Of a stretch of 64,000 bases of DNA, positions 13-38,899 are shown piece by piece. The translations under genes were made by a program, and so were the position numbers. The first letter of the stretch is position 1. Each line of letters begins with the position of its first letter. Where the stretch lies: positions 156,939 to 220,938 of the forward strand of contig CAYTUK010000001.1 of NCBI GenBank assembly GCA_964441285.1, written 5' to 3'. The stretch comes from an uncultured Thiotrichaceae bacterium. Lineage in GTDB: Bacteria > Pseudomonadota > Gammaproteobacteria > SZUA-229. Under the pieces are notes generated by a model. That model saw nothing but the letters and a program-made list of their open reading frames with translations. It did no database searches and was not told the DNA's origin.

Positions 13-204
13 ATGACTGATCAAATATTAACCATAAAAGAGGTGGCTGATTACCTCAAAGTGAATGAGCGAACGGTTTATCGCATGGCGACTGCCAAGA
101 AAATACCCGCCTTTAAAGTCGGGGGATCTTGGCGAATAAAACAAACTGAATTAGAGCAATGGATACAGGAACAACATAATCAATCGGGTGAACAGGAAGA
201 TTAG
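13..204 (+). CDS. AlpA/excisionase-family helix-turn-helix DNA-binding protein
   Basis: 63-aa ORF; motif IKEVADYLKVNERTVYRMATAKKIPAFKVGGSWRI typical of MerR-superfamily excisionase/AlpA HTH; sits immediately upstream of the R-M operon. Confidence 0.6.
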   Translation: MTDQILTIKEVADYLKVNERTVYRMATAKKIPAFKVGGSWRIKQTELEQWIQEQHNQSGEQED

Positions 205-297: not shown

Positions 298-1857
298 ATG
301 ACAAGTACCCAACAGCGCAACGAACTACAACGCCAAATTTGGCAGATTGCGAATGATGTTCGTGGCGCAGTCGATGGCTGGGATTTTAAGCAATATGTAT
401 TAGGTACCTTGTTTTACCGCTTTATTAGCGAAAATTTTGCCGCCTACATTGAAGGCGGTGATGACAGCATCAACTATGCCGAGCTTGATAATGATGTGAT
501 CACCGATGACATTAAAGACGATGCCATTAAAACCAAAGGCTACTTCATATACCCCAAAGAGCTATTCGTTAACATAGCCGCAGGCGCTAACACCAACGAA
601 AGCTTAAATACCGATTTAGCCGCACTATTTACCGCTATTGAAAGTTCGGCTAATGGCTACCCGTCTGAGCCCGATATCAAAGGCCTGTTTGCCGATTTTG
701 ATACCACCAGTAACCGCCTGGGTAACACCGTTGTGGATAAAAATACGCGTTTGGCTGCGGTACTAAAAGGCGTGGCGGGACTTAGCTTTGGCAATTTCCA
801 GGGCCAGTTTCAAGACAATCAAATCGACCTGTTTGGCGATGCCTACGAATTTTTAATCTCAAACTACGCCGCCAATGCCGGTAAATCCGGCGGCGAGTTT
901 TTCACCCCGCAACACGTCTCCAAATTGATTGCCCAGCTCTCCATGCACAAGCAAACCAGTGTCAATAAAATTTTTGATCCGGCCTGCGGTTCCGGCTCCT
1001 TGCTGCTGCAAGCCAAAAAACACTTTGAAGCGCATATTATTGAAGACGGCTTTTATGGACAGGAGATCAATCACACCACCTACAACCTGGCGCGTATGAA
1101 CATGTTTTTGCACAACATCAACTACGACAAGTTCAATATTCAGCTGGGCAATACCTTAATTGATCCGCATTTTGGTGATGACAAACCCTTTGATGCCATC
1201 GTCTCCAACCCGCCGTACTCGGTGAAGTGGAAAGGCAGCGATGACCCCACCCTGATTAACGATGAACGCTTTGCCCCCGCCGGTGTGTTAGCGCCCAAAT
1301 CCAAAGCCGACTTTGCCTTTGTGCTGCATGCCTTAAGCTATCTTTCAGCCAAAGGCCGTGCCGCCATTGTCTGCTTTCCCGGTATTTTTTACCGCGGCGG
1401 TGCGGAAAAGAAAATCCGCCAATACCTGATCGATAACAATTTTGTCGAAACCGTTATCTCACTCGCGCCCAATCTGTTTTTCGGCACCACCATCGCCGTC
1501 AATATACTGGTGCTGTCCAAACACAAAACCGACACCAGCACCCAGTTTATTGATGCCAGCGGTGAGGGTTACTTCAAAAAAGCCACCAACACCAATATCC
1601 TTACCGATCAGCACATCGAACAAATCATGCAAGCCTTCGATAGCAAAGCTAATGTTGAATATTTTGCTGAATCGGTAGATAACGACAAGATAGCCGAGAA
1701 CGATTACAACCTATCGGTCAGCAGCTATGTTGAAGCCAAAGACACCCGCGAGGTGATTGATATTACCCAGCTCAATGCCGAGCTTAAAACCACGGTAGCG
1801 AAAATTGACAAGCTACGTATAGATATTGATGCCATTGTGGCGGAGATTGAGGCATGA
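298..1857 (+). CDS. hsdM: type I restriction-modification system M subunit (N6-adenine DNA methyltransferase)
   Basis: 519 aa; N-terminal HsdM region ([18 protein letters not shown]); SAM-binding [11 protein letters not shown]; catalytic NPPY (SNPPYSVKW); ATGA overlap with downstream hsdS. Confidence 0.95.
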
Positions 1858-3134
1858 GTGATGTGAGCTTTATGGAGAAGTTGCTGGATGGGGTTGAGGT
1901 TGAGGTAGAGTGGATGGCCTTGGGGGATGATCGCGTTGGTAAATTCACACGTGGCGGCGGGTTGCAGAAAAAGGACTTTGTTGAAGAGGGTGTTGGCTGC
2001 ATTCACTATGGACAAATTTATACCCACTACGGAACCTTTGCTTACACGACTAAGGCATTTGTCACAGAAGAATTTGCTAAGAAAGCTCGCAAAGCAAAGA
2101 GTGGCGATTTGGTGATCGCGACAACAAGCGAAACCGATGAAGATGTCTGCAAAGCAGTTGCTTGGTTAGGTGATGATGATATTGCCATTAGCAGTGATGC
2201 TTGTTTTTACTCGCATAAACTTAACCCGAAATACGTTTCTTATTTTTTCCAGACTGATCAATTCCAGAAACAAAAGAGACCGTATATTACAGGTGCAAAA
2301 GTTAGGCGAGTAAATGCAGATAGTTTAGCCAAAATAAAAATCCCCATCCCCTGCCCAAACAACCCAAAAAAATCACTCGAAATCCAAACAGAAATCGTCC
2401 GCATTCTGGACACCTTCACCGAGCTGACCACCGAGCTGACCACCGAGCTGACCACCGAGCTTAGCGCACGGAAAAAACAATACAATTACTATCGCGACCA
2501 GTTGTTAAGCTTTGAAGAAGGGGAAGTTGAGTGGAAGAGTTTAAGTGAGGTTGCGGAGTATTCTAAAACGCGCATTAACTTTGAAGAACTTGATGAAGCC
2601 AATTATGTAGGTGTTGAAAATCTTTTGCAAAATCGTTTAGGCAAAACAGAATCTAGTCGCGTCCCAGAAAAAGGTAATCTTACTCAGTATAGCGAACAAG
2701 ATATTTTAATTGGCAATATTCGCCCTTACTTAAAAAAGATATGGCACGCAGATCGAATTGGTGGAACAAATGGCGATGTACTAGTTATTCATACAACCGA
2801 CAATGCTGTAAATCCTCGATATTTGTATCAAGTTTTAGCAGATGACAGATTTTTTGAATACAACATGCAACATGCTAAGGGTGCTAAAATGCCCCGCGGA
2901 AATAAAGCCAAAATAATGGAATACCCAACCCCAATCCCATACCCTAACGATCCAGAAAAATCGCTTGCCGAACAAGCACGCATCGTCTCCATCTTAGACA
3001 AGTTCGATGCTTTAACCAATTCCATCAGCGAAGGCTTACCCCGCGAAATTGAACTGCGCCAAAAGCAATACGAGTATTACCGCGATCAGCTGTTGAGCTT
3101 TCCCAATTCCCCTCCTCTGGAGGGGTGCCCGTAG
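1854..3134 (+). CDS. hsdS: type I restriction-modification system specificity subunit
   Basis: 426 aa; two dissimilar target-recognition domains separated by a central conserved region ([13 protein letters not shown]...[16 protein letters not shown]) repeated at the C-terminus ([12 protein letters not shown]...[16 protein letters not shown]); the last ~10 aa ([10 protein letters not shown]) are encoded by the inverted repeat of the adjacent cassette. Confidence 0.9.
2417..2460 (+). repeat. 12-bp tandem repeat ACCGAGCTGACC x3 plus an 8-bp partial copy, encoding (TELT)n in the HsdS central conserved region
   Basis: Directly visible: accgagctgacc at 2417-2428, 2429-2440, 2441-2452, then accgagct; translated [15 protein letters not shown]. 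Confidence 0.9.
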
Positions 3135-3147
3135 GGCGGGGTGGTTC
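3105..3147. repeat. left ~43-bp inverted repeat flanking the DUF559 gene
   Basis: AATTCCCCTCCTCTGGAGGGGTGCCCGTAGGGCGGGGTGGTTC; its reverse complement matches 3504-3550 at ~40 of 44 positions. Confidence 0.75.
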
Positions 3148-3150
3148 TTT

Positions 3151-3582
3151 ATGAGAAAAACAAAAACCTACAAATCACTCCCTTACAATCCCAGATTAAA
3201 AGGCAACGCTAAAGCCCTACGCAAAGCTGGAATATTACACGAAGCCTTGCTTTGGCTTGAGTTAAAAAACAAAAAGCTGAACGGGCTCGATTTTGATCGT
3301 CAAAAAATTATCGGTCATTACATCGTAGATTTTTACTGTGCAGAAAAAGCCGTTGTGATTGAAGTAGACGGTAGTTCTCACAACAACAAGCAGCGCCTAG
3401 ATGCTGAGCGTGACCAGTATCTCGAAAGTTTGGGGCTTTCTGTGATTCGCCTTTTGGTAAAAGATGTATTGCAGAATATGGCGGGAGTTGTGGTGTTTTT
3501 AAAGAACCACCCCACCCTAACGGGCACCCTTCCAAAGGAGGGGAATAATTACCTGCATGCAAGGAAGGAACCTAATGCCTAA
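3151..3582 (+). CDS. DUF559 / Vsr-like endonuclease-domain protein
   Basis: 143 aa; pattern LR.AG...E..LW..L......G..F.RQ...G.YI.DFYC....VVIEVDGSSH......D..RD..L...G..V.R typical of the DUF559 (very-short-patch-repair-like, restriction endonuclease fold) family. Confidence 0.75.
   Translation: MRKTKTYKSLPYNPRLKGNAKALRKAGILHEALLWLELKNKKLNGLDFDRQKIIGHYIVDFYCAEKAVVIEVDGSSHNNKQRLDAERDQYLESLGLSVIRLLVKDVLQNMAGVVVFLKNHPTLTGTLPKEGNNYLHARKEPNA
3504..3550. repeat. right inverted-repeat partner of 3105-3147
   Basis: GAACCACCCCACCCTAACGGGCACCCTTCCAAAGGAGGGGAATAATT; lies inside the 3' end of the DUF559 ORF. Confidence 0.75.
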
Positions 3583-4603
3583 TTTAAGTCTGCAAGACCA
3601 AACCACCGAATTCCTGCTCTACACCGCACCCGATGGTGAGATAAAAGTTGAGGTGCTATTAAGCAACGAAACCATCTGGCTAACCCAGAAACGCATGGCA
3701 GCCTTATTTGGCGTGGGTGTGCCGGCCATCTCAAAGCATCTTGAAAATGTTTATGATTCCAATGAGTTACAGCGCGAGGCAACTGTTTCCATTTTGGAAA
3801 CAGTTCAGCAAGAGGGCAGCCGAGAGGTAAAACGAAAACTGGAATACTACAACCTGGATGCGGTGATTTCTGTCGGTTACCGGGTTAATTCGGCGCAGGC
3901 GACTCAATTTCGCATTTGGGCGACAGCTTTGATAAAAGAGTACATCATCAAGGGCTTTGCCATGGATGATGAGCGATTGAAAAATGGCCATTATTTTGGC
4001 AAGGACTATTTCCGCGAGCTGCTGGAGCGGGTGCGCTCTATCCGCGCCAGCGAGCGGCGTATTTATCAACAGATTACCGATATTTTTTCTGAGTGCAGCA
4101 TCGATTACGACCCGAAGTCTGAGGCCACCCGTTTGTTTTACGCCCATGTGCAGGATAAGTTTCATTTTGCGATTACAGGCCATACGGCGGCAGAAATTAT
4201 TTCCCTAAAGGCGGATGCCAGTAAACCCATGATGGGTATGAGCACTTATAAAAATGCACCGGAGGGTCGTGTGTTGAAGTCGGATTCAACCGTGGCGAAA
4301 AATTATTTAAGTGAAGCCGATATTAAAAAATTGGAACGTGCAGTTTCAGCCTTTTTTGACTATATCGAGGGTATTATCGAGCGGCGTAACGCGTTCACTA
4401 TGGAGAGCTTTGCCGAAAGCGTAAACAAATTTCTTGGCTTTAATGAGTACCAGATTCTGGAAGGCTATGGAAAAATCAGCCGAAAGCAAGCGGAACAAAA
4501 AGCCATTGAAGAATACGAAAAGTTCAACAAACAGCAACGCATCGAATCTGATTTTGACCGAGAAGTGAAAAAGCTGCTGCAAAAAAGAGACTTAAAAGAA
4601 TGA
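3575..4603 (+). CDS. RhuM-family protein (virulence protein RhuM family) of unknown function
   Basis: Signature [27 protein letters not shown] typical of the RhuM family. The ORF caller gives 3557, but ATG 3575 with AGGAAGGA RBS upstream is the more likely start. The stop overlaps the hsdR start (ATGA). Confidence 0.8.
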
Positions 4604-7600
4604 GCGAATATAAAACCATTGCCGAATCCAGTACATTTATCGTTTTAGATAAATACATCAAAGCGTGCCAGATCAGCGAAAGCTTCCAAAGCGAAGACGA
4701 CCTGGAGCGAGAATTTATTCAGGATTTACAGAATCAGGGCTATGAATATCTCCCCTGCCTAAACACGCCTGAAAAAATGCTGGCGAATGTACGCGAGCAG
4801 TTGCAAGCCCTGAATAAGGTGCAGTTTTTAGAGGGCGAATGGATGCGCTTTGTTGAGGAGTATTTAGACAAACCCAGCGATAACATTTTTGATAAAACCC
4901 GCAAAATTCATGATGACTATATTCATGACTTTGTGTTTGATGACGGCCATATTCAGAACATTTACCTGTTAGATAAAAACAATATTACGCGTAATAAATT
5001 GCAGGTGATCAAGCAGTTTGAGCAAACCGGCTCACACGCCAACCGTTACGATGTGACCGTGCTGGTTAATGGTCTGCCTCTAGTACAAATAGAACTGAAA
5101 AAACGCGGCGTGGCGATTCGTGAAGCCTTTAACCAGGTGCACCGTTACAGTAAGGAGAGTTTTAATAGCAAGCATTCCCTGTATAAATATTTACAACTGT
5201 TTGTGATTTCAAACGGCACCGATAGCCGTTATTTTGCCAATACCACGGCGCGCAATAAAAACAGTTTTGATTTCACCGTGAACTGGGCGAAAGCCGATAA
5301 TAGTCTGGTTAAAGATTTAAAAGACTTTACCGCGACTTTCTTTCAAAAAAACACCCTGTTAAATGTGCTGCTGCATTATTCGGTATTTGATGTGAGTGAT
5401 ACCTTGCTGGTGATGCGCCCTTATCAGATTGCTGCCACCGAGCGCATTTTGTGGAAGATAAACAGCTCGTATGAAGCGAAAAATTGGAGCAAATCCGATA
5501 GTGGTGGCTATATCTGGCATACCACGGGTTCGGGTAAAACCTTAACCAGTTTTAAAGCGGCACGTTTGGCTACCGAACTCGATTTTATTGATAAAGTGTT
5601 TTTTGTGGTCGATCGTAAGGATCTGGATTTCCAGACCATGAAAGAATATCAGCGTTTCTCGCCAGATAGTGTCAATGGCTCTGACAGCACCGCCGGGCTC
5701 AAGCGCAACCTGGACAAAGATGACAATAAAATTATTGTGACCACGATTCAAAAACTGAACCATTTAATGAAAAGTGAAAGCAACTTATCTGTTTACCACA
5801 AGCAGGTGGTGTTTATTTTTGATGAGGCGCACCGCAGTCAGTTTGGTGAAGCACAAAAAAACCTGAAGAAAAAATTCAAAAAGTTCTACCAATTTGGTTT
5901 TACCGGCACCCCTATTTTTCCGCAAAATGCCCTGGGCGCAGAAACGACTGCCGGTGTATTTGGGCGTGAATTACATTCTTATGTGATTACCGATGCCATT
6001 CGTGATGAAAAAGTATTGAAATTTAAGGTGGACTACAACGATGTGCGTCCACAGTTTAAGGCGATTGAAAGCGAGCAGGATGAGAAAAAACTAACGGCGG
6101 CGGAAAACAAACAAGCTTTATTGCATCCCGATCGTATTCGGGAAATTTCGCAGTATATCCTGAATAATTTCAAGCAAAAAACACATCGCCTGCAAGCCAA
6201 CGGCAAAGGCTTTAATGCCCTATTTGCCGTTAGCAGTGTGGATGCCGCCAAGTTGTATTATGAGTCACTTAAGCACTTGCAAGAGGGCAGTGACAAGCCG
6301 CTAAAAGTCGCCACTATTTTCTCGTTTGCTGCCAATGAAGAGCAAAATGCTGTCGGTGAAATTCTGGATGAAAGCTTTGACGTCTCGGCGATGAATAGCA
6401 GCGCCAAAGAATTTTTAAACGTGGCAATCACTGACTATAACGCATTGTTTAAAACTAATTTTGGTGTGGATAGCAATGGCTTTCAAAACTATTACCGAGA
6501 CCTTGCCAAGCAGGTAAAAAGCCAGGAAATCGACTTGCTGATTGTGGTTGGTATGTTTCTGACGGGCTTTGATGCCCCAACACTGAATACCTTGTTTGTG
6601 GATAAGACCTTGCGTTATCACGGTTTGATTCAGGCCTATTCACGCACTAACCGTATTTATGATGCCACCAAGACTTTTGGCAATATTGTTACCTTCCGTG
6701 ATTTGGAGCGGGCCACGGTCGATGCCATTACCCTGTTTGGTGACAGCAATACTAAAAACGTGATACTGGAAAAAAGTTATAAGGAATACATGGAAGGCTT
6801 TACCGATGTGGTTACCGGTGAAGCCAGGCGCGGTTATATGGAAGTGGTATCTGAATTGGAGCAGCGCTTCCCCAATCCAGAAGCGATTGAAAAAGAGTCG
6901 GATAAAAAAGCCTTCGCAAAACTATTTGGCGAGTATTTGCGTGTCGAGAATGTATTGCAAAACTACGATGAATTTGCCGGTCTGAAAGCCTTACAAAGCA
7001 TCGATATGGACGACACGGAGGCGGTTGAGGCATTTAAAACCAAACACTATTTAAACGATGAAGATCTGGAAACATTGCAAGCGATTAAGGTGCCTGCCGA
7101 ACGAAAAGTACAGGATTACCGCTCAAGCTATAACGATATTCGCGATTGGCTGCGTCGTGAGAAATCAGCCGACGAAAAAGACAGCTCAAGTATTGATTGG
7201 GATGACGTGGTTTTTGAGGTCGACCTACTCAAGTCGCAAGAGATCAATCTGGATTACATTCTGGAACTGATTTTTGAAAATAGTAAGAAGGTTAAAGATA
7301 AAGCGACACTGATTGACGATGTACGTCGGGTGATTCGTGCCAGCCTTGGCCATCGTGCGAAAGAGAGTCTGCTGGTAGATTTTATTAATCAAACCGACCT
7401 TGACCAGATTGATGATAAGGCCAGTATTATTGATGTTTTTTTCAGCTTTGCCCAAGCGGAACAACAGCGTGAGGCAGGTGAATTAATTCGTGCTGAAAAT
7501 CTCAATGAAGAAGCGGCTAAGCGTTACATTACGACATCGTTAAAACGTGAGTATGCCAGTGAGAACGGTACAGAGCTAAATGCGCTGCTGCCTAAAATGA

Positions 7601-7698
7601 GTCCGCTTAATCCGCAATACCTAACCAAGAAACAAAGCGTGTTCCAAAAAATTGCCGTTTTTGTTGAGAAGTTTAAAGGCGTGGGTGGGCGGGTTTAA
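4600..7698 (+). CDS. hsdR: type I restriction enzyme R subunit (endonuclease/helicase), family IC-like
   Basis: 1032 aa; N-terminal PD-(D/E)xK nuclease motif ([13 protein letters not shown]); SF2 helicase motifs ([24 protein letters not shown]); size and organisation as in EcoR124I HsdR. Confidence 0.95.
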
Positions 7699-7883
7699 TC
7701 ACCGAGTAAGGCCTTATCCATTATCTTAATTTGGTATAGATTAAACCTGCTTCATTATGTGCTGGTTGATTGAGGTGAGGGGGTATAATGGGGGGGTATC
7801 TTGTTTGTGTATTTTTAAAAAACCTATATATAACATAGGTTAAGGCCATATATGGGCGGTGGTCTGGCGTTGATTACGCGAGT

Positions 7884-8108
7884 TTAATCTTGGTGTTTTA
7901 CGTTGGACTCATCTGGAGGCAGCGCATCTGTAGTGTGCGCATTGTCCGTTTCACTGACCGATTCTCTTTCATTATCGTCCATTAAAATTTGATAAGCGGG
8001 TCCTTCAAGGTCCTCAAACTGGTCAGATTTTATTGCCCACATAAATAACCAGATAATAATTGCTAGAAGAATTAAAGCCACGGGAAGTAACAGGTAAATG
8101 ATATTCAT
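7884..8108 (-). CDS. ccoS: cbb3-type cytochrome oxidase assembly protein CcoS/FixS
   Basis: 74 aa; single TM then SDQFEDLEGPAYQIL motif characteristic of CcoS; immediately downstream of ccoI. Confidence 0.75.
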   Translation of the reverse strand: MNIIYLLLPVALILLAIIIWLFMWAIKSDQFEDLEGPAYQILMDDNERESVSETDNAHTTDALPPDESNVKHQD

Positions 8109-8124
8109 TAGTTAATGGCATCTG

Positions 8125-10629
8125 TTATGTTTGTTTTGGTCTGTTGTTTTTGTCGCTTTGCAGACGAGTTAGACGCAATGCGTTTAGCACCACAAATAAG
8201 GAGCTAAGTGACATTCCGCTGGCGGCTAGCCATGGTTCGACATAACCCATTGCGGCGGCAGGGATGGCTATCATGTTATAGAGAATAGCCCAAATAAAAT
8301 TTTGTTTGATGATGGTAAGACACTTCTGCGCAATACTATAACCGCTAAAAATATGTAGAATGTTGTTGTTAAGTAAAACCATGTCTGCGGTGGCGACAGC
8401 GAGCTGTGAGCCTTTGCCCATCGCAATTGACAGGTTAGCGGCGGCCAGTACCGGTGCGTCATTAATGCCATCGCCTGTCATGGCGACTATCTTGCCTTCA
8501 TCCTGTAGTCGGCGCAACTGATTAAGTTTGTCCTGTGGTCGCAAATTGGCCTGTACATGGGTAATAGCCAGTTTATTTGCAATGGCTGTGGTGGTGGTAA
8601 TGTCATCACCACTCATTAAATGTACCTGCTTGCCAGCTTTCTGTAAATTTTTGATAAGTGTCTTTGCTTCGACTCTGAGCTGATCGCCAAGTAAAAAAAT
8701 ACAGTGAAGTTCAGCTTTTATGGTTGCGTCTGTGGCCAGAAAGATACTTGTGTAAAGCTCTTCTGTGGGGAGAGTAAGCAGAGTTTCATCGCTGTTTTGG
8801 CAATGCTGCTGGATAAAAGCGGCATTGCCCAGAAACCAGTGTGTTGTATCGATATAACCATCAACCCCATAACCGGGTGTGTTGTGTAAGTCTTTAACGG
8901 CTAATGGTGCTTGCTTATTTGCGCTAACAATGCAGCGGGCAATAGGGTGTTCGGAGGCGGATTCCAGTGCGGCGGCAATCTGTAAGCAGGTTTTGTCTGA
9001 GTATTTATCTGATAAGACGTGGGTTTTTTTTAACTGCAATTCACCTTCGGTGAGGGTGCCGGTTTTATCAAATACAAAATCGGTGATTTTTGTGAGCATC
9101 TCCAGTGCATGGGTGTTTTTGGGTAACAGGCCGATGCGTGCCAGTTGTCCGTTGGCTGCGGTAATGGCTGCCGGTGTTGCCAGCGATAATGCACAGGGAC
9201 AGGTTACGACCAGGGTGGCAATCGTGATTGATACCCATTCAGCGGGGTTATGCAGGTACCAGTAAATTGCAACGATGGTAGCAAGGCCAAGAATAATAGC
9301 AACAAACCAGCTGGCAATATAGTTAGCGAGCTGGGCAATTTTTGGCCGGGTATTTTGCGCCTGTTCAAGCAGGTGTTGTATTGATGAGAGTACGGTATCG
9401 TCACCAAGTTTTTCTACCTGGATAACCAGTGGGCTTTCTGTGTTAGTGCTGCCACCAATGGCCATGTCACCAATAGTCTTGGTTATCGGCAGACTTTCCC
9501 CCGTGAGCAGGGATTCATTGATTCCGGAAGTGCCTCGAAGAATGCGACCATCGGTAGGAATGTTTTCGCCTGGGCGCACCAGTATGCGATCACCGATATT
9601 TAATTCTGAGACAGCGACGGACTCCTGTTGCTCTTTATGCGTGGTGTTTTTACCGGTGTTAACCAGTCGAGTGGCAATTGCCGGGCGTAAATTTAACAGT
9701 AACTCAGTGGCTTCAGCGGTACGTTTTCGTGCGCTTAGTTCAAAGTAGCGTGCCGTGAGTAGAAAAAAAGTAAACATCACCACAGAATCAAAATACACCT
9801 GACCATGATTGACATAGGTGTGGTAGCTGCTGGCAATAAAGGCGATGGCAATGCCTAGTGCAACGGGGACATCCATACCAACACGGCGATTGGTTAAGTC
9901 TCGCCAGGCGGCTTTAAAAAACACATCGGAAGAGAAAAGGATTACGGGTATAGTTAGCAATAGACTTATCCAGCGAAAACTGTGTTTAAAGCCGGCATTA
10001 ATGCCCCACCATTCGCCGAAATACATAGCAAAGGCAAGTATCATAATTTGCATACCGAGTACCGCAGAGAGCCCGATGCGCCGGAGTTGCCGTTTGCGCT
10101 CATTCTCGATTAATTTCTGCTGTTTGTCAGGGTCAAAAGGATGGGCGAGGTAGCCTATTTGACTAATAGACATCAGTATTTCACTGAGACTGATGCGTGC
10201 ATTGTCCCAGCGTACTCGGGCACGGTGATTGCTGTAGTTGATGCTTACCTCGAGCACGCCGCTGAGTGCGCGTAGGTGTTTTTCATTCAACCAGACGCAG
10301 GCAGCGCAAACAATCCCTTCCAGAATTAATGCCACTTCCCGAATATCAGCATCCTCACCGGCATGATTTTCAGCAGTGATAAAGTGTTTTTGTATCTGTG
10401 GGTTATCGTAGGCCTTAAGTTGTTGTAGAAATTCCGGCACTAGCTCTTCAGCTTTTTCGGGTGCTGCGGTACGATAGCGGTAGAAATCGTCCATCCCTCC
10501 GCTGATAATGGCGTTGGCAACGGCTTCACACCCGTGGCAGCACATAGTTCTGGTTTCGCCCTGGTAGTTGATGCTGATATGACAGTCTGGTGGTACCGGT
10601 AAACCGCAGTGAAAACAGTTGTCGTTCAA
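8125..10629 (-). CDS. ccoI: copper-translocating P1B-type ATPase CcoI/FixI
   Basis: 834 aa; N-terminal Cys-rich CFHCGLP...CCHGCEAV; CPC transmembrane metal site (TCPCALSLATP); DKTGTLT phosphorylation site; GDGINDAP. Confidence 0.9.
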   Translation of the reverse strand: MNDNCFHCGLPVPPDCHISINYQGETRTMCCHGCEAVANAIISGGMDDFYRYRTAAPEKAEELVPEFLQQLKAYDNPQIQKHFITAENHAGEDADIREVALILEGIVCAACVWLNEKHLRALSGVLEVSINYSNHRARVRWDNARISLSEILMSISQIGYLAHPFDPDKQQKLIENERKRQLRRIGLSAVLGMQIMILAFAMYFGEWWGINAGFKHSFRWISLLLTIPVILFSSDVFFKAAWRDLTNRRVGMDVPVALGIAIAFIASSYHTYVNHGQVYFDSVVMFTFFLLTARYFELSARKRTAEATELLLNLRPAIATRLVNTGKNTTHKEQQESVAVSELNIGDRILVRPGENIPTDGRILRGTSGINESLLTGESLPITKTIGDMAIGGSTNTESPLVIQVEKLGDDTVLSSIQHLLEQAQNTRPKIAQLANYIASWFVAIILGLATIVAIYWYLHNPAEWVSITIATLVVTCPCALSLATPAAITAANGQLARIGLLPKNTHALEMLTKITDFVFDKTGTLTEGELQLKKTHVLSDKYSDKTCLQIAAALESASEHPIARCIVSANKQAPLAVKDLHNTPGYGVDGYIDTTHWFLGNAAFIQQHCQNSDETLLTLPTEELYTSIFLATDATIKAELHCIFLLGDQLRVEAKTLIKNLQKAGKQVHLMSGDDITTTTAIANKLAITHVQANLRPQDKLNQLRRLQDEGKIVAMTGDGINDAPVLAAANLSIAMGKGSQLAVATADMVLLNNNILHIFSGYSIAQKCLTIIKQNFIWAILYNMIAIPAAAMGYVEPWLAASGMSLSSLFVVLNALRLTRLQSDKNNRPKQT

Positions 10630-10842
10630 AATTTAAACAATGCCTTAATCTGAGTAGTAAATATTTTTATGGATACTGGCCAGGGTAACCTGTTAAGGTC
10701 ATATTAATATGCTGACAGTTATTTTTCTTGTGTTCTATATTTTGTATTCTATATAACTTATATTCTATATAATAGTGTTTAAGAAAAAGATCACGCATAG
10801 TTTTAGTCGAGTGCTACTAGTATAAGCCCTAAATTATCATTT

Positions 10843-11625
10843 TTGAGTATAGAATACAGTGTATCTATTATGAGTCAGCTAACGCGTATTAATTTTGAAC
10901 AATTAAAAGTTTCCTGTGTGGACTGCAGTTTACGCGAGTTGTGTTTCCCACATGGAATGACCAATGCTGAGATGAAGCAGTTGGGCAAGATTGTGAGCCA
11001 GCGTAACCCATTGCGCAAAAATGAAGCGCTGTATCATGATGGTGATACCGCGCAGGCGATTTATGCGGTGCGTTCGGGCAGCATTAAAACAGCGGCAGAA
11101 AGCATCAATGGTGATGAGCAAATTGTTGGTTTTCATTTATCTGGAGAGATGGTGGGGCTGGATGGTTTTAGAGATGGCACCCACTCCTGTACTGCTATCG
11201 CACTGGAAACAACCAGTGTTTGCGTGATATCGATGGATAAACTGGAGCAGCTTTGCCATGTAATGCCCGGCCTGCAGAAGCAGATGCGCCGGGTTATGGG
11301 GAAGGAAATTAGTGCGGATCATGGCATGTTGCTGATGTTAGGTAAAATGTCTGCAGAAGAGCGGCTGGCCAGCTTTTTGCTGAGCTTTTCACGGCGCATG
11401 GAAGAACGTAACTGGAAAGCTGACGAGTTCGTGTTAAGTATGCCGCGTCAGGATGTTGCCAATTATCTTGGTCTTGCGGTTGAAACGGTGAGCCGTCTGT
11501 TTGCACATTATCAGGACGAGGGACTTATTGCGGTTGATCGGCGTCGCATCAGTGTTCTGGATATGGCGCGGCTAAGATTGCTGGTTGGCGAACACGAGCC
11601 AAAAACGGTCGCAGATGCAAAATAG
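10843..11625 (+). CDS. fnr: FNR/Anr-type Crp-family oxygen-sensing transcriptional regulator
   Basis: N-terminal Cys cluster CVDCSLRELC plus a downstream Cys as in the [4Fe-4S] FNR; cNMP-binding fold; C-terminal HTH (ETVSRLF); alternative start at 10870. Confidence 0.85.
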   Translation: MSIEYSVSIMSQLTRINFEQLKVSCVDCSLRELCFPHGMTNAEMKQLGKIVSQRNPLRKNEALYHDGDTAQAIYAVRSGSIKTAAESINGDEQIVGFHLSGEMVGLDGFRDGTHSCTAIALETTSVCVISMDKLEQLCHVMPGLQKQMRRVMGKEISADHGMLLMLGKMSAEERLASFLLSFSRRMEERNWKADEFVLSMPRQDVANYLGLAVETVSRLFAHYQDEGLIAVDRRRISVLDMARLRLLVGEHEPKTVADAK

Positions 11626-11771
11626 ACTTTGTTAATGCGGTAAAGGTCTCTGTATCTAAATTCCTGTTCGCGTCACCATGTATTATAAAAAATTTAGCTT
11701 TATACAGCATGGATATACAATATTTACACATAAGAATTAACGGCGCCGCGGTGAGAACGCTTAAATCGCTC

Positions 11772-13160
11772 TCAGATGATTCTGGAATAGGCTTGCTGGA
11801 TTTCGTTGTCGTGTAAATAATGATCAAATTGCATACAGATGGAACGTGCAAGCAAGCGGCCTTTTGCCGTAATGCTCAAGTTTTCTGCGGTGAGTGTAAT
11901 CAGACCATCGTTAGCCATTTCATTGAGTTTGGGTATGGCGTCGCTAAAATAAGCTGGAAATTGTATGTCCCATTTGCGCTCCAGTCTTGCTATGTCGAGA
12001 AAGTTATTACACATAAGTTGATTAATGATCTCACGGCGCAGAATATCGTCAGGTTCCAGCTCGACACCACGAAATACAGCCAGTCGGTCTGCATTTAATC
12101 GGGTTTCATATTCGTCAATGCTACGAACGTTCTGGCCGTAATTATCTCCTACATGGCTGATTGCGGTGATACCCATCGCGATAATGTCACAGTTCGCATG
12201 GGTAGAATAGCCCTGAAAATTACGATGTAAAGTGCCATTTTGTTGGGCTTTTACCAGATCGTCAGTGCCTTTGGCAAAATGATCCATGCCGATATAGAAG
12301 TAACCGGCATGCTGTAATTTATCAATGGTTAATTGCAGGATAGTCAGTTTCTGTTCGGCAGAAGGCAGTGCGGCCTGGTTTATACGCCGCTGCGGTTTAA
12401 ACATCTCCGGCATGTGTGCGTAGTTGTAGACGGCAATTCGATCCGGGTTGGCGGCGATTACAGTATCCAGGGTTTTTTCAAAGCTTGTGGGTGTTTGTTC
12501 AGGCAGACCATACATTAAATCAATGTTAATGGATTCAAACTGGTTGTTTCGAGCTGACTGAATGGATTGCATAATCTGCTCGGTGCTGTGAATACGATTG
12601 ACGGCTTTTTGAACATTTTCGTCAAAATCCTGAACTCCAAAGCTGATTCGGTTAAATCCTAGCTGATGCAAATGTTTAATTCTATTTTCATCGACAGTAC
12701 GCGGGTCCACTTCAATACCGAATTCACCATTATTGGTCGTGATATGAAAATTCGCATGAAGACTCTCCATGAGCTCGGCAATTTCATCATCACTAAGAAA
12801 AGTGGGGGTGCCGCCGCCCCAGTGGATCTGTATAACCTCGCGGTCATCAACGAGCAGGCGACCTTGCATGGCAATTTCTTTTTTTAATAACTTTATATAG
12901 GGTGCCGCTTTGGTTTTGTCTCGGGTGACGATTTTACTGCAGCCGCAGTAGTAACAGATGGTGTCACAAAAAGGAATGTGCAGGTAAAGCGATAACTTGG
13001 CAGGGATAGGATCTTCATTGCTGACATCAATCCATGTCATGTAGTCAGTGTCATCGTGCTCGTTGGTGAACTGTTTTGCCGTGGGGTATGAAGTGTAACG
13101 TGGGCCAGCATAGTCATAACGCTGGATCAGCTTTTTATTAAACAGAATTTTATCGCTCAT
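11772..13160 (-). CDS. hemN: oxygen-independent coproporphyrinogen III oxidase (radical SAM)
   Basis: 462 aa; radical-SAM CxxxCxxC (CDTICYYC); HemN-type N-terminus (RYDYAGPRYTSYPTA). Confidence 0.9.
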   Translation of the reverse strand: MSDKILFNKKLIQRYDYAGPRYTSYPTAKQFTNEHDDTDYMTWIDVSNEDPIPAKLSLYLHIPFCDTICYYCGCSKIVTRDKTKAAPYIKLLKKEIAMQGRLLVDDREVIQIHWGGGTPTFLSDDEIAELMESLHANFHITTNNGEFGIEVDPRTVDENRIKHLHQLGFNRISFGVQDFDENVQKAVNRIHSTEQIMQSIQSARNNQFESINIDLMYGLPEQTPTSFEKTLDTVIAANPDRIAVYNYAHMPEMFKPQRRINQAALPSAEQKLTILQLTIDKLQHAGYFYIGMDHFAKGTDDLVKAQQNGTLHRNFQGYSTHANCDIIAMGITAISHVGDNYGQNVRSIDEYETRLNADRLAVFRGVELEPDDILRREIINQLMCNNFLDIARLERKWDIQFPAYFSDAIPKLNEMANDGLITLTAENLSITAKGRLLARSICMQFDHYLHDNEIQQAYSRII

Positions 13161-13309
13161 ACGTTTGCCTTTTGTTGGGTAACGGGTGTTTGCTTCTTTT
13201 GTTGTTGGAGATCGATCAGGTTGAAATCGAACTGCTTATCCAATAATTGACTTTGCTGCGTTAAATAATAAGAAACAGGCCAATATTACAGTTGATTCGC
13301 CGTTTCGAC

Positions 13310-13323
13310 TTGATCTATATCAA
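13310..13323. promoter_or_regulatory. FNR/Anr box TTGATCTATATCAA (perfect TTGAT-N4-ATCAA)
   Basis: Exact match to the FNR consensus in the hemN/ccoN divergent intergenic region, 150 bp upstream of the hemN start codon. Confidence 0.7.
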
Positions 13324-13753
13324 GTTACTTATTTTTCAGATTTTATATTATTAGGTACAGGTGATTAGTAGGCGTGCCCTATTATTCTGTGCAGATACGG
13401 GTAGTGATAAGACCTGTTTATAAATGGTTTCGTTTTAAACCCCTTGAATGAAAGGGGTAATAGTGTATGATTTACATGTTTTTTACAGATACGCGGTGTT
13501 TTTTACAGGTGCGTGGCGAAAAACTGGGGATAAAATGTGCTGGTCTAATGGATATGCCTGTACTCTAGTTGATTGATAGCTGTGGATTACAACACTGGCC
13601 GGTTGAAAATATTTAAGTAAAAAAATTATTTAAGTGTTTCTTGAGGTTAATTATAATAATATAGTGACTGAATTTTGAAGAAATAATGCTAGAATTCATT
13701 AATTCAAAATATACTGATAAACTAACACAATTAGGTGATGCGGAAAATTTATT

Positions 13754-15196
13754 ATGACTGATCAAACAATGATAAATAGTGATGATGTTTATAATTATCG
13801 GGTGGTTCGACAGTTTTCTATTATGACCATTGTACTGGGTATAGTTGCTATGTCAGTCGGTGTGCTCATTGCTTCACAACTGGCCTGGCCGGTGATGAAT
13901 TTTAATATTCCCTGGCTGACTTTCGGGCGTTTACGGCCTTTGCATACTAATGCTGCTGTTTTTGGCTTTGGGGGTTGTGCCTTATTTGCAACGTCCTATT
14001 ATGTTGTGCAACGTACCTGTCATGCCCGTTTGTTTGCGCCAGCGTTAGCAGAATTTACCTTCTGGGGCTGGATGTTGGTCATGTTGCTGGCGGTGATCAC
14101 ATTGCCCATGGGTTACACCACATCAAAAGAATATGCCGAGCTGGAATGGCCCATTGATATATTAATCGCCATTGTCTGGGTCGCGTATGCAGTCGTCTTC
14201 TTTGGCACGATTGCCAAGCGGCGGGTGAAGCATATTTATGTGGCAAACTGGTTTTTTGGTGCATTTATTATTACCGTAGCCCTGTTGCATGTGGTGAACA
14301 GCGCAGAGATTCCTGTTACTTTAACCAAATCCTATTCGGTTTATGCGGGGGTTCAGGATGCGATGGTGGAATGGTGGTACGGGCATAATGCAGTAGGTTT
14401 TTTACTGACGGCTGGCTTTCTCGGTATTATGTATTATTTTGTTCCAAAACAGGCGGAACGTCCGGTTTATTCTTATCGGCTCTCGGTTGTGCATTTCTGG
14501 TCATTGGCATTTACCTATATCTGGGCGGGGCCACATCATCTGTTATACACGGCATTGCCCGATTGGACGCAATCACTGGGGATGGTTTTTTCCCTGATTT
14601 TATTGGCACCTTCCTGGGGTGGCATGATCAACGGCATTATGACTCTGTCAGGTGCATGGGAGAAATTGCGGGATGACCCGATTCTTAAATTTTTGATTGT
14701 ATCGATTTCTTTCTATGGTATGTCAACTTTTGAAGGGCCGATGATGGCGATTAAGACGGTGAATGCTTTGTCGCATTATACTGACTGGACAATTGGTCAC
14801 GTTCATTCTGGAACTCTGGGTTGGGTAGGGATGATTACTATTGGTTCAATGTATTACCTGATTCCAAAACTGTTTGGCACCAAAATATATAGCAAAAAGT
14901 TAATTGAAACCCATTTCTGGGTGGCCACGGTTGGTATTGTGTTGTATATAACCTCAATGTGGATTTCAGGTATTATGCAGGGTTTAATGTGGCGAGCAAC
15001 AAATAGCGACGGTACGCTGACATACAGCTTTGTTGAAGCCGTTCAGGCAACACATCCATTTTATGTTATCCGTCTCAGTGGCGGCATCCTGTACCTGTCG
15101 GGTATGTTCATCATGGCTTATAACATATTCAAAACTACGGTCAGAGGTAAAGCAGTCAATAACGCGCTGATTCCAACACCTGTCATGGCGCATTAA
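13754..15196 (+). CDS. ccoN: cbb3-type cytochrome c oxidase subunit I
   Basis: 480 aa; 12-TM haem-copper oxidase; conserved [10 protein letters not shown] and His ligands. Confidence 0.95.
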
Positions 15197-15247
15197 ACCG
15201 TTGACTACCGTAATTTTCATAATTGAATTAAGCAGGAGATAAAATAT

Positions 15248-15862
15248 ATGTCGACACTTCAGGAGAATGTGGAAACTAAAGTTGGGTTTTTGATTACGTT
15301 TACGCTGGTTGTTGTTTTGTGGGGAGGACTGGCGCTTATTGTTCCGCTATTTTTTCAGAATTCGACAACAACCCCCGTCGAAGGTTTAAAACCCTATACC
15401 GCGTTACAGCTTGAGGGGCGCGATATTTATATTCGTGAAGGTTGTGTGGGCTGTCATTCTCAGATGATACGGCCTTTTCGTGCAGAAACTGAGCGTTATG
15501 GGCATTACTCGGTAGCGGGTGAATTTGTTTATGACCGACCCTTCTTATGGGGGTCTAAACGGACAGGGCCTGATCTGGCACGTATCGGTGGTCGCTATTC
15601 CGATGCCTGGCATCGTATCCATCTGAATGATCCTCGCGATGTTGTGCCCGAGTCCATTATGCCTAATTTCCCCTGGTTATTGACAAATAACCTGGACGGT
15701 AGCGACATACAGGCAAAGATGCGCGCATTAAGAGAATTGGGAACACCTTACACGGATGAACAAATTAAAAATGCACCGGCTAAGCTCAAAGGCAAGAAAG
15801 AAATTGACGCTGTTATTGCCTATCTGCAGTCTTTAGGGACGCATGTGAAAACAACGCGGTAG
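15248..15862 (+). CDS. ccoO: cbb3-type cytochrome c oxidase subunit II (monohaem)
   Basis: 204 aa; N-terminal TM; CxxCH (CVGCHS). Confidence 0.9.
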
Positions 15863-15868
15863 TTACTT

Positions 15869-16081
15869 ATGCATAATTCTATACTTATACAGTCTGTATG
15901 GACGGTTCTTGCCTTTGTTATCTTTATTGGGATTGTTATCTGGGCATGGAGTGGTCGGCGTGAAAAAGATTTCGATAAAGCCGCACGTATGGCGCTGGAT
16001 GAAGATAAAAATAATAACGACGATAATAGCAATAACAAAGATAACGCAGTGGATGAACAAAGCAGTAAACACTCTTCATAG
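15869..16081 (+). CDS. ccoQ: cbb3-type cytochrome c oxidase subunit CcoQ
   Basis: 70 aa; single TM (VWTVLAFVIFIGIVIWAWSG) then KDFDKAARMALDED as in CcoQ; Asn/Asp-rich low-complexity tail. Confidence 0.75.
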   Translation: MHNSILIQSVWTVLAFVIFIGIVIWAWSGRREKDFDKAARMALDEDKNNNDDNSNNKDNAVDEQSSKHSS

Positions 16082-16176
16082 CGTGTTGAAGGACGTTTTT
16101 CAAGTAAGTGACACATATTTAAAGTGGCACATATTTAATAAGTAATACATATTTAATTAGGGTATGAGGAATCATT

Positions 16177-17094
16177 ATGTCTGACTTTACAAGTCCATTT
16201 TGGAGTTGGTATATTATGGCGATAGCAGGTGGTGGTATCATCTGGTTGCTTTTTTTACTGCGTGGTAATTCAAAAATGACAGGTAAGGTGGGTGAGCCGA
16301 CGGGTCATGTTTGGGATGAAGACCTGGAGGAGCTAAATAACCCTCTACCTCGCTGGTGGCTGGTCATGTTCTATGGGGCCATTTTTTTTGGTATTGGTTA
16401 TCTTATATTGTACCCTGGTATGGGATCATACAAAGGGCTGCTGAAATGGACTGAAGTAGGCCAATACAACACCGAAATGGCTACGGCGAAAGCTAAATAT
16501 GATCCCTTGTTTGACAAATTTCTTAAAGAAGACCTTGCGACACTTGCGAAGAATAAACAGGCGTTAAAAATTGGGGGACGCCTATTTGTTACCTATTGTG
16601 CAGTTTGTCATGGTTCTGATGCGCGTGGCGCGCGAGGGTTTCCTAATTTACGGGATAATGATTGGTTGTATGGTGGTGAACCTAACACAATTCAAACCAC
16701 GATTTTATATGGTCGACAAGGTACAATGCCCGCCTGGGAAGGTCCATTGGGTGGCATGAAAGGTGTCGATGCGGTGGCTAATTATGTAATGAGCCTTTCA
16801 GGGAGAAAAGTGAATAAGAAACTGGCTGCTGAGGGAAAGGTGAAATTTGATATGTTTTGTGTAGGCTGTCATGGCCGTAATGGTAAAGGCAGCTATTTAA
16901 ATAATATTCCAGGTATTGGAGCGCCTAATTTGACCGATAATATCTGGTTGTTTGGTGGTTCAGCTCACACCATTGAAAGAACCATAGCAAAAGGGCGTAC
17001 AGGTAAGATGCCTGCACATAAAGACTTTTTGGGTAAAGCAAAAGTGCATATTTTGGCAGCGTATATTTATAGTTTGTCACACCAAGCGAAATAA
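16177..17094 (+). CDS. ccoP: cbb3-type cytochrome c oxidase subunit III (dihaem)
   Basis: 305 aa; two CxxCH motifs (CAVCHG, CVGCHG); N-terminal TM. Confidence 0.9.
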   Translation: MSDFTSPFWSWYIMAIAGGGIIWLLFLLRGNSKMTGKVGEPTGHVWDEDLEELNNPLPRWWLVMFYGAIFFGIGYLILYPGMGSYKGLLKWTEVGQYNTEMATAKAKYDPLFDKFLKEDLATLAKNKQALKIGGRLFVTYCAVCHGSDARGARGFPNLRDNDWLYGGEPNTIQTTILYGRQGTMPAWEGPLGGMKGVDAVANYVMSLSGRKVNKKLAAEGKVKFDMFCVGCHGRNGKGSYLNNIPGIGAPNLTDNIWLFGGSAHTIERTIAKGRTGKMPAHKDFLGKAKVHILAAYIYSLSHQAK

Positions 17095-17109
17095 GTGTAT
17101 ATTGAGTCC

Positions 17110-17403
17110 ATGGATGGAATACCCCCTGTACAGCGTATTATTGCGATACTCTGGCCGTCTTTTATAACGGCAGGTATTGCGACCGTGTTGTTTACGGTCG
17201 CATTTGATCCGGTCATTGTTTTCCCCGATAAGGATCTTGGGCGTATAGGTCTCTATGGTATCTGTTTCTTTCTCTTCTGGTTGTTTGGTGCGTTTACCGC
17301 TGCGGCTACATGTTATAGCCTGAAGCCCTGTAGTACGATAAATAACAGTACGATAAATAGCAGTGCGACAAATAAAGTCGGCGTTAAAAAAACGCGGGCT
17401 TGA
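17110..17403 (+). CDS. hypothetical small membrane protein, 2 predicted TM helices, in the cco operon
   Basis: ORF immediately after the ccoP stop; hydrophobic stretches IIAILWPSFITAGIATVLFTVAF and IGLYGICFFLFWLFGAFTAAA; no family recognised; the frame opens at GTG 17095. Confidence 0.4.
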   Translation: MDGIPPVQRIIAILWPSFITAGIATVLFTVAFDPVIVFPDKDLGRIGLYGICFFLFWLFGAFTAAATCYSLKPCSTINNSTINSSATNKVGVKKTRA

Positions 17404-17559
17404 GGCAGCGGTTGAAAGAAATACCGGCAACGATAGCGTAGTAGATGATCGCAGCAGACAACTTAAATTAACTAAATCTTAAAACTAAATCTATATTCTT
17501 ACTGTGTGCAGTGGGTTCTATTGTACGCAACAACAACAGCATTAGGTAATATTCTGACT

Positions 17560-18963
17560 ATGAATCAAAATGATAGCGCTGCTGACGACGATGTTGAGCA
17601 GTCGCTTTATGCCAAGCGCCAGAAAATTTATCCGCGCGAGGTGCATGGCCTATTTGCTGCACTGCGCTCATTTGGTGTATTAACTTTATTAGGTTTGTAC
17701 TACATTCTGCCGTGGTTACAATTGGATCATCGGCAAGCGATACTGTTTGACTTACCTGATCGTAAATTCTATATTTTCAATATAATTTTCTGGCCACAGG
17801 ATTTTTTCTATCTGGCTTTATTATTAATTATTGCTGCACTGGGTTTGTTTTTTGTTACTGCGCTTGCCGGGCGTGTCTGGTGTGGTTACAGCTGTCCACA
17901 AACGGTCTGGACCGAAGCTTTTTTATGGATTGAGCGTAAAGTTGAGGGCACGCGCCAAACACAGATGAAGCTTGATAGGGCCGAAAATTCATTCCGCAAG
18001 TTTCGCCTTAAAGTCACGAAGCACCTTATATGGATTATATTTTCACTGTATACCGGAGTAACCTTTGTCGGCTATTTTTCGCCTATACGTGAACTCACAG
18101 TAGAGTTTTTGACGCTGAACATAGGACCGTGGCAAGCTTTTTGGATATTTTTCTATGGTTTTGCAACCTATGGTAATGCCGGTTGGCTGAGGGAACAGGT
18201 TTGTATGTATATGTGCCCTTATGCGCGGTTTCAGAGCACGATGATGGACAGGGACACGATGATTATTTCTTTTGATGAATCGCGCGGTCTGCCAAAAGGT
18301 TCACGCAAGAAAGGTCTGGATAAAGACACGCTGGGTTTGGGTGATTGTATCGACTGTACCATCTGTGTGCAGGTTTGTCCGACAGGTATTGATATTCGTG
18401 ATGGGTTGCAATACCAGTGTATCGGTTGTGCGGCCTGTATTGATGCCTGTGATGATGTGATGGATAAAATGGGTTATGAGCGAGGCCTGATTCGTTATAC
18501 AACAGAGAACTCTCTAAATGGGAGCGTGACGCATGTTTTACGCCCACGGGTCATTATCTATGCGATTATTCTTTCTGCTATGACCTTTGGTGCCTTTTAC
18601 TCCATTTTTGAGCGCAAACCGATAGCCTTGGATGTTATACGTGATCGCAACACCCTGTTTCGAGAAACCAATGCGGGTTTAATTGAAAATGTCTATATAT
18701 TAAAAATAATGAACATGGACAATAAGCCACACGATTATCGATTATCGGTCGCTGGGCCGAATAACCCTATTCTGAAAAAGGATGTTAAGGTAGTGCATGT
18801 TGCTAGCGGTAAAGTGCTGGATCTTCCTGTCCGAGTGCAGGTTGATGAGGATAATATTAAAACCCGTAGCACGCAGATAGAATTTAAAGCCTCTGCGATA
18901 GGTGATCCAGGAAAATTAACGGTAACACAAAAAGCCCGGTTTCTCGGGCCTATTGATCAATAA
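17560..18963 (+). CDS. ccoG: cytochrome c oxidase accessory protein CcoG/FixG (polyferredoxin)
   Basis: Two 4Fe-4S ferredoxin motifs (CIDCTICVQVCP, CIGCAACIDACD); upstream CGYSCPQ; the ORF caller starts at 17506, but ATG 17560 fits CcoG N-termini better. Confidence 0.85.
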   Translation: MNQNDSAADDDVEQSLYAKRQKIYPREVHGLFAALRSFGVLTLLGLYYILPWLQLDHRQAILFDLPDRKFYIFNIIFWPQDFFYLALLLIIAALGLFFVTALAGRVWCGYSCPQTVWTEAFLWIERKVEGTRQTQMKLDRAENSFRKFRLKVTKHLIWIIFSLYTGVTFVGYFSPIRELTVEFLTLNIGPWQAFWIFFYGFATYGNAGWLREQVCMYMCPYARFQSTMMDRDTMIISFDESRGLPKGSRKKGLDKDTLGLGDCIDCTICVQVCPTGIDIRDGLQYQCIGCAACIDACDDVMDKMGYERGLIRYTTENSLNGSVTHVLRPRVIIYAIILSAMTFGAFYSIFERKPIALDVIRDRNTLFRETNAGLIENVYILKIMNMDNKPHDYRLSVAGPNNPILKKDVKVVHVASGKVLDLPVRVQVDEDNIKTRSTQIEFKASAIGDPGKLTVTQKARFLGPIDQ

Positions 18964-18993
18964 CGCATTTTCTGTAAAGAATAAAAAACGATT

Positions 18994-19605
18994 ATGAATA
19001 GTCTAACAATGAATCAAACTAAACCCTGGTATCGTCTTCCACTGGTGTGGATGCTGATACTTATCCCTTTCTCCGCCGTTGTTTCGGGTGTGATTATACT
19101 GTGGTTTGCCATCGACACCAATGATGGATTGGTGGTTGATGATTATTATCAGGAGGGGTTGGCGATTAACCAGGTCATCGAAAGGGATGATGCCGCAACA
19201 CGCTTGCATATCGAGGCCAAACTGGAATATAACAATGCAACCCGTGTGGTAAAGCTAACTTTTAATAAAGGCTTGCTGAAGAGTTATCCAGCGACGATAC
19301 AGTTGCACATTAAACATGCGACACTGGCTAAAAAAGATCATAAGGCCGTTTTACAACGTGGTATCAGCAGCGCAACTTCTGGAAAATACCAGGGTATATT
19401 GTCAAGGCCATTAATCAATGGTTACTGGTATTTTCAAATCAGCAACAACCGGATTCATTATACTGAAAGCACGGGCAATAAAGCCAATAAAAGAGTGGCG
19501 GCTAAAAAGGATCATAATAACTGGCGTCTAACCAAACGCTTTAAAGTAACTCAGGCGTTTAGTTTTATGTTGAAACCGTTGCCAAAAACAGCGGCGACAC
19601 CTTAA
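18994..19605 (+). CDS. ccoH: FixH/CcoH family protein
   Basis: 203 aa; N-terminal TM then DDYYQEGLAINQ motif of FixH; positioned after ccoG. Confidence 0.75.
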   Translation: MNSLTMNQTKPWYRLPLVWMLILIPFSAVVSGVIILWFAIDTNDGLVVDDYYQEGLAINQVIERDDAATRLHIEAKLEYNNATRVVKLTFNKGLLKSYPATIQLHIKHATLAKKDHKAVLQRGISSATSGKYQGILSRPLINGYWYFQISNNRIHYTESTGNKANKRVAAKKDHNNWRLTKRFKVTQAFSFMLKPLPKTAATP

Positions 19606-19606
19606 C

Positions 19607-19627
19607 CCGCAACCTGCGGATTATTTA
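19607..19627 (+). terminator. candidate intrinsic terminator after ccoH
   Basis: Short hairpin CCGCA-ACC-TGCGG followed by ATTATTT; weak. Confidence 0.3.
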
Positions 19628-19730
19628 ATCACTCCTCGGGTTCAGCCGCTTTCCACATGTGTGTTGCCCGTGTTGCCTAATCGTTGGCGAAGTGGGTTTG
19701 TTCATTCTACACGGTGTAATAATTTGTGAC

Positions 19731-21302: not shown

Positions 21303-21429
21303 GATTTTGCCTTTGGTGTTATTGACCTAAATATCGGAAAGGCGGAAATTATAGCCGATTGTGCTGCTGAATGAAAAATGCACGCGCATCCAGGCGGATA
21401 AAATTAAGGCTGATTTAAGTGGCCGAGGC

Positions 21430-21720: not shown

Positions 21721-21731
21721 GCGGCTTCTTA

Positions 21732-22733: not shown

Positions 22734-22813
22734 GGGGCGTTATTTTGACAGGTTTTAGCTCAGAGTTATATGCGTAAATACTTTGGTGAGCAGTATAAAG
22801 TGTGCTACAGCGG

Positions 22814-29742: not shown

Positions 29743-29746
29743 TATT

Positions 29747-33734: not shown

Positions 33735-33742
33735 GCAGAGTT

Positions 33743-38898: not shown

Positions 38899-38899
38899 T

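Follow-up and report, generated by a model that had tools for sequence, protein, structure and literature searches.

The window, which is the whole stretch of DNA analysed here (64 kb), opens with a restriction-modification locus in which the genes follow the order hsdM-hsdS-DUF559-rhuM-hsdR (Table 1). The stop codon of hsdM and the start codon of hsdS overlap in the sequence ATGA. The hsdM, hsdS, and hsdR genes are all full length and HsdR contains the EcoR124_C domain; the locus therefore represents a complete type IC system. The gene that the earlier note had called hsdS is indeed a specificity subunit, and its assignment to type IC follows from the EcoR124_C domain of HsdR and from the match of HsdS to the EcoR124 HsdS chain. 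Historically, membership in the family was judged by complementation between subunits or by antibody cross-reaction. Exact-protein look-ups of HsdM, HsdR, and RhuM returned none on record.

Table 1. Features of the hsd locus and of the parts of hsdS, with positions in the window.
Feature	Position	Strand	Basis
Small helix-turn-helix ORF upstream of hsdM	13..204	+	Sequence reading; locus L081 has a 59-aa PF12728 HTH_17 gene there
hsdM, type I methyltransferase subunit, 519 aa	298..1857	+	TIGR00497 E=6.7e-191; PF02384, PF12161
hsdS, type IC specificity subunit, 426 aa, intact	1854..3134	+	PF01420 in two stretches; 7bst_A phmmer E=3e-55; AF2 pLDDT 78
6-nt repeat GGTTGA x3.2, encoding VEVEVE in the N-terminal conserved segment	1892..1910	+	Tandem Repeats Finder
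TRD1, approximately aa 26-160	1929..2333	+	Bounds from alignments
Central conserved-region helix, aa 171-217, bearing the repeat	2364..2504	+	AF2
Tandem array, 3.75 perfect copies, TEL(TTEL)3	2417..2461	+	Tandem Repeats Finder, frame reading, shuffles
TRD2, approximately aa 226-365	2529..2948	+	aa identity 97.9% with L082 and 100% with L089 across its 35 available aa
Distal conserved-region helix, aa 367-414, counterpart of the central one	2952..3095	+	AF2
Putative insertion with inverted repeats at both ends, carrying the DUF559 gene	3106..3546	+	Arms 3106-3151 / 3500-3546, 81-83% complementary
DUF559 (Vsr-like) gene	ORF 3151-3582		PF04480 E=1e-30
rhuM-family gene between hsdS and hsdR	3557..4603	+	PF13310 E=4e-105; L081 has the same gene before hsdR
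hsdR, type IC restriction/translocase subunit, 1032 aa	4600..7698	+	TIGR00348 E=6e-203; PF12008 EcoR124_C E=4e-71; PF22679, PF04313

The accessory genes of the hsd operon vary among related loci. In locus L081, a Fic gene is situated between hsdM and hsdS, and AAA_13 and rhuM genes precede hsdR (L081 2279-5337). The accessory genes of the window are DUF559 and rhuM (3151-4603), and locus L093 contains other sequence of about 1.9 kb (about 1400-3279). The gap between hsdS and hsdR seems to gather accessory genes. Downstream of the hsd genes, the window contains a cbb3-type oxidase region that includes hemN and a regulator resembling fnr (8125-19605), an RNase P RNA (25548-25905; Rfam RF00010, 331 bits), and a same-strand run of ORFs (27904-45459), the last three products of which are FtsA, FtsZ, and LpxC. 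This run is followed by secA and was read as the dcw cell-division/wall cluster. The best named relatives of SecA belong to 'Gammaproteobacteria bacterium' MAGs (77% identity), and proteins from hydrothermal-vent metagenomes reach about 75%.

Both ends of the window HsdS are unusual. The N-terminal conserved segment has four residues (VEVE, VDVE etc.) in all readable homologues (about 90), and VEVEVEW was found in none of them, which makes the 2-aa VE insertion unique to the window allele within this set. At the other end of the gene, the DUF559 gene lies between two inverted repeats, which are imperfect and about 46 nt long. The left arm codes for the last 9 hsdS codons and the stop codon, and the homologues end in ..FPKPE.. 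instead. The segment 3106-3546 looks like a small insertion with inverted-repeat ends. With the VE insertion and a C-terminus supplied by the putative insertion arm, there is some doubt whether the window HsdS is fully functional. Positions 3105-3279 are 91-92% identical in contigs labelled as a methanotrophic Bathymodiolus symbiont (L046) and Ca. Endonucleobacter bathymodioli (L048), and locus L094 matches the same positions inside a 96%-identical stretch.

A 12-nt tandem array was detected on the plus strand of hsdS by Tandem Repeats Finder (period 12, 3.8 copies, 100% matches, no indels, score 90), and it represents the top-scoring tandem repeat of the whole 64 kb window. The array comprises 3.75 perfect copies of the 12-nt unit over 45 nt. 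Read in frame from 2418 to 2462, it consists of ACCGAGCTGACC three times and then ACCGAGCTT, and the encoded peptide is F-TEL-(TTEL)3-SARKKQY, in which TEL(TTEL)3 corresponds to aa 189-203 of HsdS. Three occurrences of the 12-mer were counted in the window compared with 0.10 expected, and none of 100 dinucleotide-preserving shuffles reached 3 occurrences. The earlier note had described a perfect 12-bp repeat at 2417-2460 in 3.7 copies; the description holds, with the trivial correction that the perfect run ends one base later, at 2461. The position between two target-recognition domains (TRDs), claimed in the same place, was likewise confirmed by the two PF01420 stretches that flank the array within the ORF 1854-3134. 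[quoted passage not shown]

The sole solved structure matched by sequence was the HsdS of EcoR124 (PDB 7bst chain A, E=3e-55 by phmmer). The central and distal type IC conserved motifs were both aligned to 7bst_A, and an alignment to 35 homologues was also made. In the alignment to 7bst_A, the columns of the array coincide with those of the TAEL repeat of EcoR124, whose segment is FTALTAELTAELNMRKKQ, and the array is 4 aa (one unit) longer. Its position thus makes it the homologue of the TAEL repeat, and what had been proposed from the sequence as an analogy to EcoR124 turns out to be the same element, in the same family and in the same alignment columns. An AF2 model built from 36 sequences (mean pLDDT 78) has one continuous central helix of 47 residues (171-217, with mean pLDDT of 80-89 in 10-residue blocks), which contains the repeat (aa 189-203), and a distal helix of 48 residues (367-414). 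The top Foldseek matches of the model were all HsdS structures, 7bst_A included.

Several properties are thus shared with EcoR124I and EcoR124II, namely the 12-nt / 4-aa repeat, the central helix, and the same flanking motifs (IVRILD.F ...), and the length in the window equals the three-repeat state described for EcoR124II. On the other hand, the unit is TTEL/TELT in the window and TAEL in EcoR124, and the first partial unit of the window is also a perfect DNA copy, which gives 3.75 identical units versus about 3. EcoR124 is encoded on the E. coli plasmid R124, whereas the window locus is chromosomal and has DUF559 and rhuM inserted between hsdS and hsdR. The two window TRDs show weak or no relationship to the EcoR124 TRDs, so the half-sites of the window enzyme differ. 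Since there is no characterised enzyme with the TRDs of the window, its recognition sequence is not predictable.

The principle that repeat number determines the specificity of type IC enzymes has been textbook knowledge since 1989. The 12-bp sequence in the first dimerisation helix is present twice in EcoR124I, which recognises GAA N6 RTCG, and three times in EcoR124II, which recognises GAA N7 RTCG (Loenen et al., 2014, PMC3874165). The change in copy number between them originated by unequal crossing-over (PMC3874165). EcoDXXI and EcoPrrI (TCA N7 RTTC and CCA N7 RTGC) have three TAEL repeats, which were called the apparent optimum, and an 8-nt methylation interval (PMC3874165). The window shares this three-repeat state, but its TRDs are not theirs. 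In NgoAV of N. gonorrhoeae, the number of LEAT repeats ranges from 0 to 3 among natural strains, and the PacBio motifs were GAC N6 TGC with 1 repeat and GAC N7 TGC with 2 repeats (Sánchez-Busó et al., 2019, PMC6789123). One unit per spacer base has accordingly been published for EcoR124I/II, EcoDXXI hybrids, and NgoAV (PMC3874165, PMC6789123), and the account of 2 versus 3 repeats and N6 versus N7 in EcoR124I/II, on which the earlier note relied, is as published (PMC3874165) and was reproduced in N. gonorrhoeae PacBio methylomes (PMC6789123). The window array would follow the same one-unit-per-base-pair principle as NgoAV. NgoAV, however, has a phase-variable poly-G tract that truncates HsdS, and a homopolymer switch of this kind was not seen in the window hsdS. 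A survey of phase-variable type I systems with simple sequence repeats discusses the TAEL coiled-coil repeat explicitly (Atack et al., 2020, PMC7383803). The likeness to the surveyed systems is a repeat inside hsdS that is proposed to change specificity; the difference is that theirs are tracts of short units which mostly switch expression on and off by frameshift. The length of the window unit is divisible by three, so that a change in unit number alters the length of the helix and not the reading frame.

Across the family, the segment between the conserved F and RKKQY of the central region was measured. It was extracted from 108 of the 120 best protein homologues; 88 of these had a segment of 13 aa, 15 had one of 17 aa, and 5 had one of 9 aa. 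Among 72 arrays from genome and metagenome loci, the corresponding numbers were 39 (13 aa), 29 (17 aa), and 4 (9 aa). A segment of 5 aa was seen in few cases and only in fragment proteins, and none of about 250 homologues had a segment longer than 17 aa. The distal segment (F to RQKQY) had 17 aa in every homologue examined. With 17 aa, the central segment of the window equals the distal one; it thus represents the symmetric state and the longest form found in nature. A search for longer arrays with a synthetic five-unit query gave short fragments only, none with more than 3 repeats. In IMG/VR (2.9 million viral contigs), the pattern of at least 4 full units and a partial one had two matches, both of them unrelated TEF-type repeats and not hsdS, and the three-unit pattern was found in 30 stretches, at least 22 of which are hsdS in the 17-aa state. 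A four-repeat construct of Gubler and Bickle from 1991 is said to become promiscuous. In the EcoR124 register, the window array is read as three repeats, i.e., the common 'optimum' and the top of the natural range. Consequently, natural precedent exists only for losing a unit.

The repeat units are strongly homogenised at the DNA level. When units encoding the same peptide were compared, 91 of 103 pairs within an array were DNA-identical (88%) versus 973 of 7193 pairs between arrays (13.5%). The own codon usage of each gene predicts 1.2% identical pairs, and the maximum in 20,000 simulations was 10, compared with the 91 observed. Codon bias as the cause of the identical units was ruled out by the difference between the predicted 1.2% and the observed 88%. 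DNA identity of units within genes indicates homogenisation, which is the expected footprint of repeated gain and loss of units, and it points to a continual turnover of this kind. It seems that neither the three-repeat cap nor the strength of homogenisation has been quantified earlier. Copy-number variants among related alleles, which the earlier note had suggested looking for, were found both as TRD2 relatives with 1 or 2 units (see below) and as pairs one unit apart. The E. coli group provided four such pairs, each with 100% identity in the sequence on either side of the array (P0028/P0052, P0018/P0042, P0063/P0073, and P0067/P0100). Inside its extra unit (TAELTAEPTAEL), the three-repeat E. 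coli allele P0018 contains a Leu-to-Pro substitution, and the rest of its sequence matches the common two-repeat P0042 at 100%. With a proline placed in the coiled coil, P0018 looks like a recently expanded and possibly impaired variant.

The TRD2 type of the window is found again in other alleles. Locus L082 (JGI metagenome record SWIR1) has 92.7% DNA identity over 2340-3106, a TRD2 with 97.9% aa identity, and two units fewer than the window (1 unit). Locus L089 (VAPF01018576) has 93.5% DNA identity over 2340-2633, a TRD2 that is 100% identical over the 35 aa present, and one unit fewer (2 units). The TRD1 of both L082 and L089 differs from that of the window. Just upstream of its array (about 570-640), L082 has deletions of 1 nt and 2 nt, which shift the frame for about 13 codons before it is restored; these may be sequencing errors or signs of a decaying gene. 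Similarity to all relatives begins at about 2337-2341, which is the start of the conserved region. The TRDs also occur in exchanged positions, because the TRD1 type of the window (closest match, 85.7% aa) is found in the TRD2 position of L046 (about 327-725) and L048 (about 3983-4381), and its TRD2 type (76%) in the first TRD position of L097 (5534-5950). No protein with both TRDs of the window HsdS was present in a database of 5.8 billion clusters, where the best matches were 54-76% identical. An allele with the TRD1 and TRD2 of the window and another copy number was not found among the relatives, i.e., there is no direct pair of the EcoR124I/II type, and no near-identical DNA of the window hsdS was found in E. 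coli genomes and plasmids.

Scanning metagenome contigs with the flanks as anchors yielded nine loci, of which L093 has the array length of the window and the other eight are one unit shorter. The VAOX01 assembly contains L093 (3 units) and L094 (2 units) together with a contig (L085) that is 99.9% identical to window positions 7486-23160. The TRDs of L093 and L094 are unlike those of the window and unlike each other; these loci are therefore distinct alleles and not slippage variants. Contigs that are 99.9-100% identical to the cbb3-oxidase/hemN flank were found in VAOX01015332, SRR6439355, SRR6439356, SRR6439361, and SRR32234003. The ends of the same-species contigs from all five assemblies fall at 7486-7745, a span of about 260 nt that includes the hsdR stop codon. 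The neighbouring proteins HemN and FixS are on record, and every contig that carries them stops at the end of hsdR. These breaks imply that the hsd island is either strain-variable or repeated in those samples.

From the observed homology, position, and copy state of the array, the variation among relatives, and the homogenisation of units, we infer with considerable confidence that the array is the spacer-setting helix repeat of a type IC enzyme, in which the number of units would set the spacer, and slippage or unequal crossing-over would change the specificity. The central helix would pair antiparallel with the distal helix and so fix the distance and twist between the two TRDs. Each 12-nt unit would add about one helical turn and, as in the studied enzymes, extend the spacer by 1 bp. 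The units share one DNA sequence, which makes replication slippage or unequal crossing-over possible, and the removal of a unit, or more rarely its addition, would create a new specificity. Such unit changes recur across the type IC family over evolutionary time. Given the three-repeat state shared with EcoR124II, EcoDXXI, and EcoPrrI, the window enzyme is predicted by analogy to belong to the longer spacer class, with an 8-nt interval between the methylated adenines, or N7 in the case of 3+4 half-sites.

It is conceivable, at rather low probability, that copy number changes mainly as a by-product of recombination between alleles in the central region while TRDs are shuffled, and not by slippage within an allele. 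All relatives with the TRD2 of the window differ from it in TRD1 and in unit count, the similarity to every relative sets in at the start of the conserved region, and TRDs move between the first and second positions, all of which would be expected from such exchange. However, no inter-allelic exchange is required to explain the E. coli-group pairs whose sequences are identical to the left and right of the array, and breakpoints are not resolvable inside the conserved region. Recombination between alleles probably contributes to copy-number change and is compatible with slippage. We regard it as unlikely that the array works as a fast switch resembling phase variation, in which cells with 2, 3 (or 4) units would coexist in one population and give rise to mixed methylomes and mixed phage resistance. 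The perfect array over 45 nt, the strong homogenisation of units in the family, the occurrence of 3-unit and 2-unit hsdS contigs next to a 99.9%-identical flank in VAOX01, and an hsd island that is strain-variable or repeated in five assemblies would fit such a switch. The two VAOX01 loci are nevertheless separate alleles by their TRDs, the array is shorter than would be expected of a contingency locus, and variants of the same allele were not seen among the contigs compared. A 12-nt unit in only 3.75 copies lends itself poorly to slippage in comparison with classical contingency repeats.

A static structural repeat, in which protein constraint and codon preference keep the units alike and copy number is effectively fixed, appears very improbable. 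There are only three full-length length classes and the 17-aa state matches the distal helix, which does suggest strong structural constraint, but the proportion of identical unit pairs is far above that predicted from codon usage, one unit separates alleles with 100% identity outside the array, and alleles with nearly the same TRD2 have 1, 2, or 3 units. An array mis-collapsed or mis-expanded during assembly can be practically dismissed, since any sequencing read exceeds its 45 nt, exactly the same 3.75-copy DNA recurs in the independent assemblies L007 and L093, and the reading frame is intact.

The array of the window is a further example of the known type IC element, and its TTEL spelling, its 3.75 perfect copies, and its uncultured gammaproteobacterial host are minor variations. 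We also put forward, as a speculative idea with a low chance of being right, that the hsd island acts as a population-level generator of diversity, where TRD shuffling and the loss of units from a fully homogenised array of maximal length would keep several specificities in circulation among otherwise 99.9-100% identical strains, and that type IC arrays would not go beyond three repeats because the fixed 17-aa segment of the distal helix limits the length of the central one. If the length of the array changes, another set of sites would be methylated and restricted, so different phages and foreign DNA would be accepted, and other genes would possibly be epigenetically marked. The length classes (5, 9, 13, and 17 aa), the three-repeat cap, the homogenisation of units, and the recurring one-unit pairs are of some value for predicting the motifs of type I enzymes, and the hsd locus marks a hotspot of strain variation in this uncultured bacterium.
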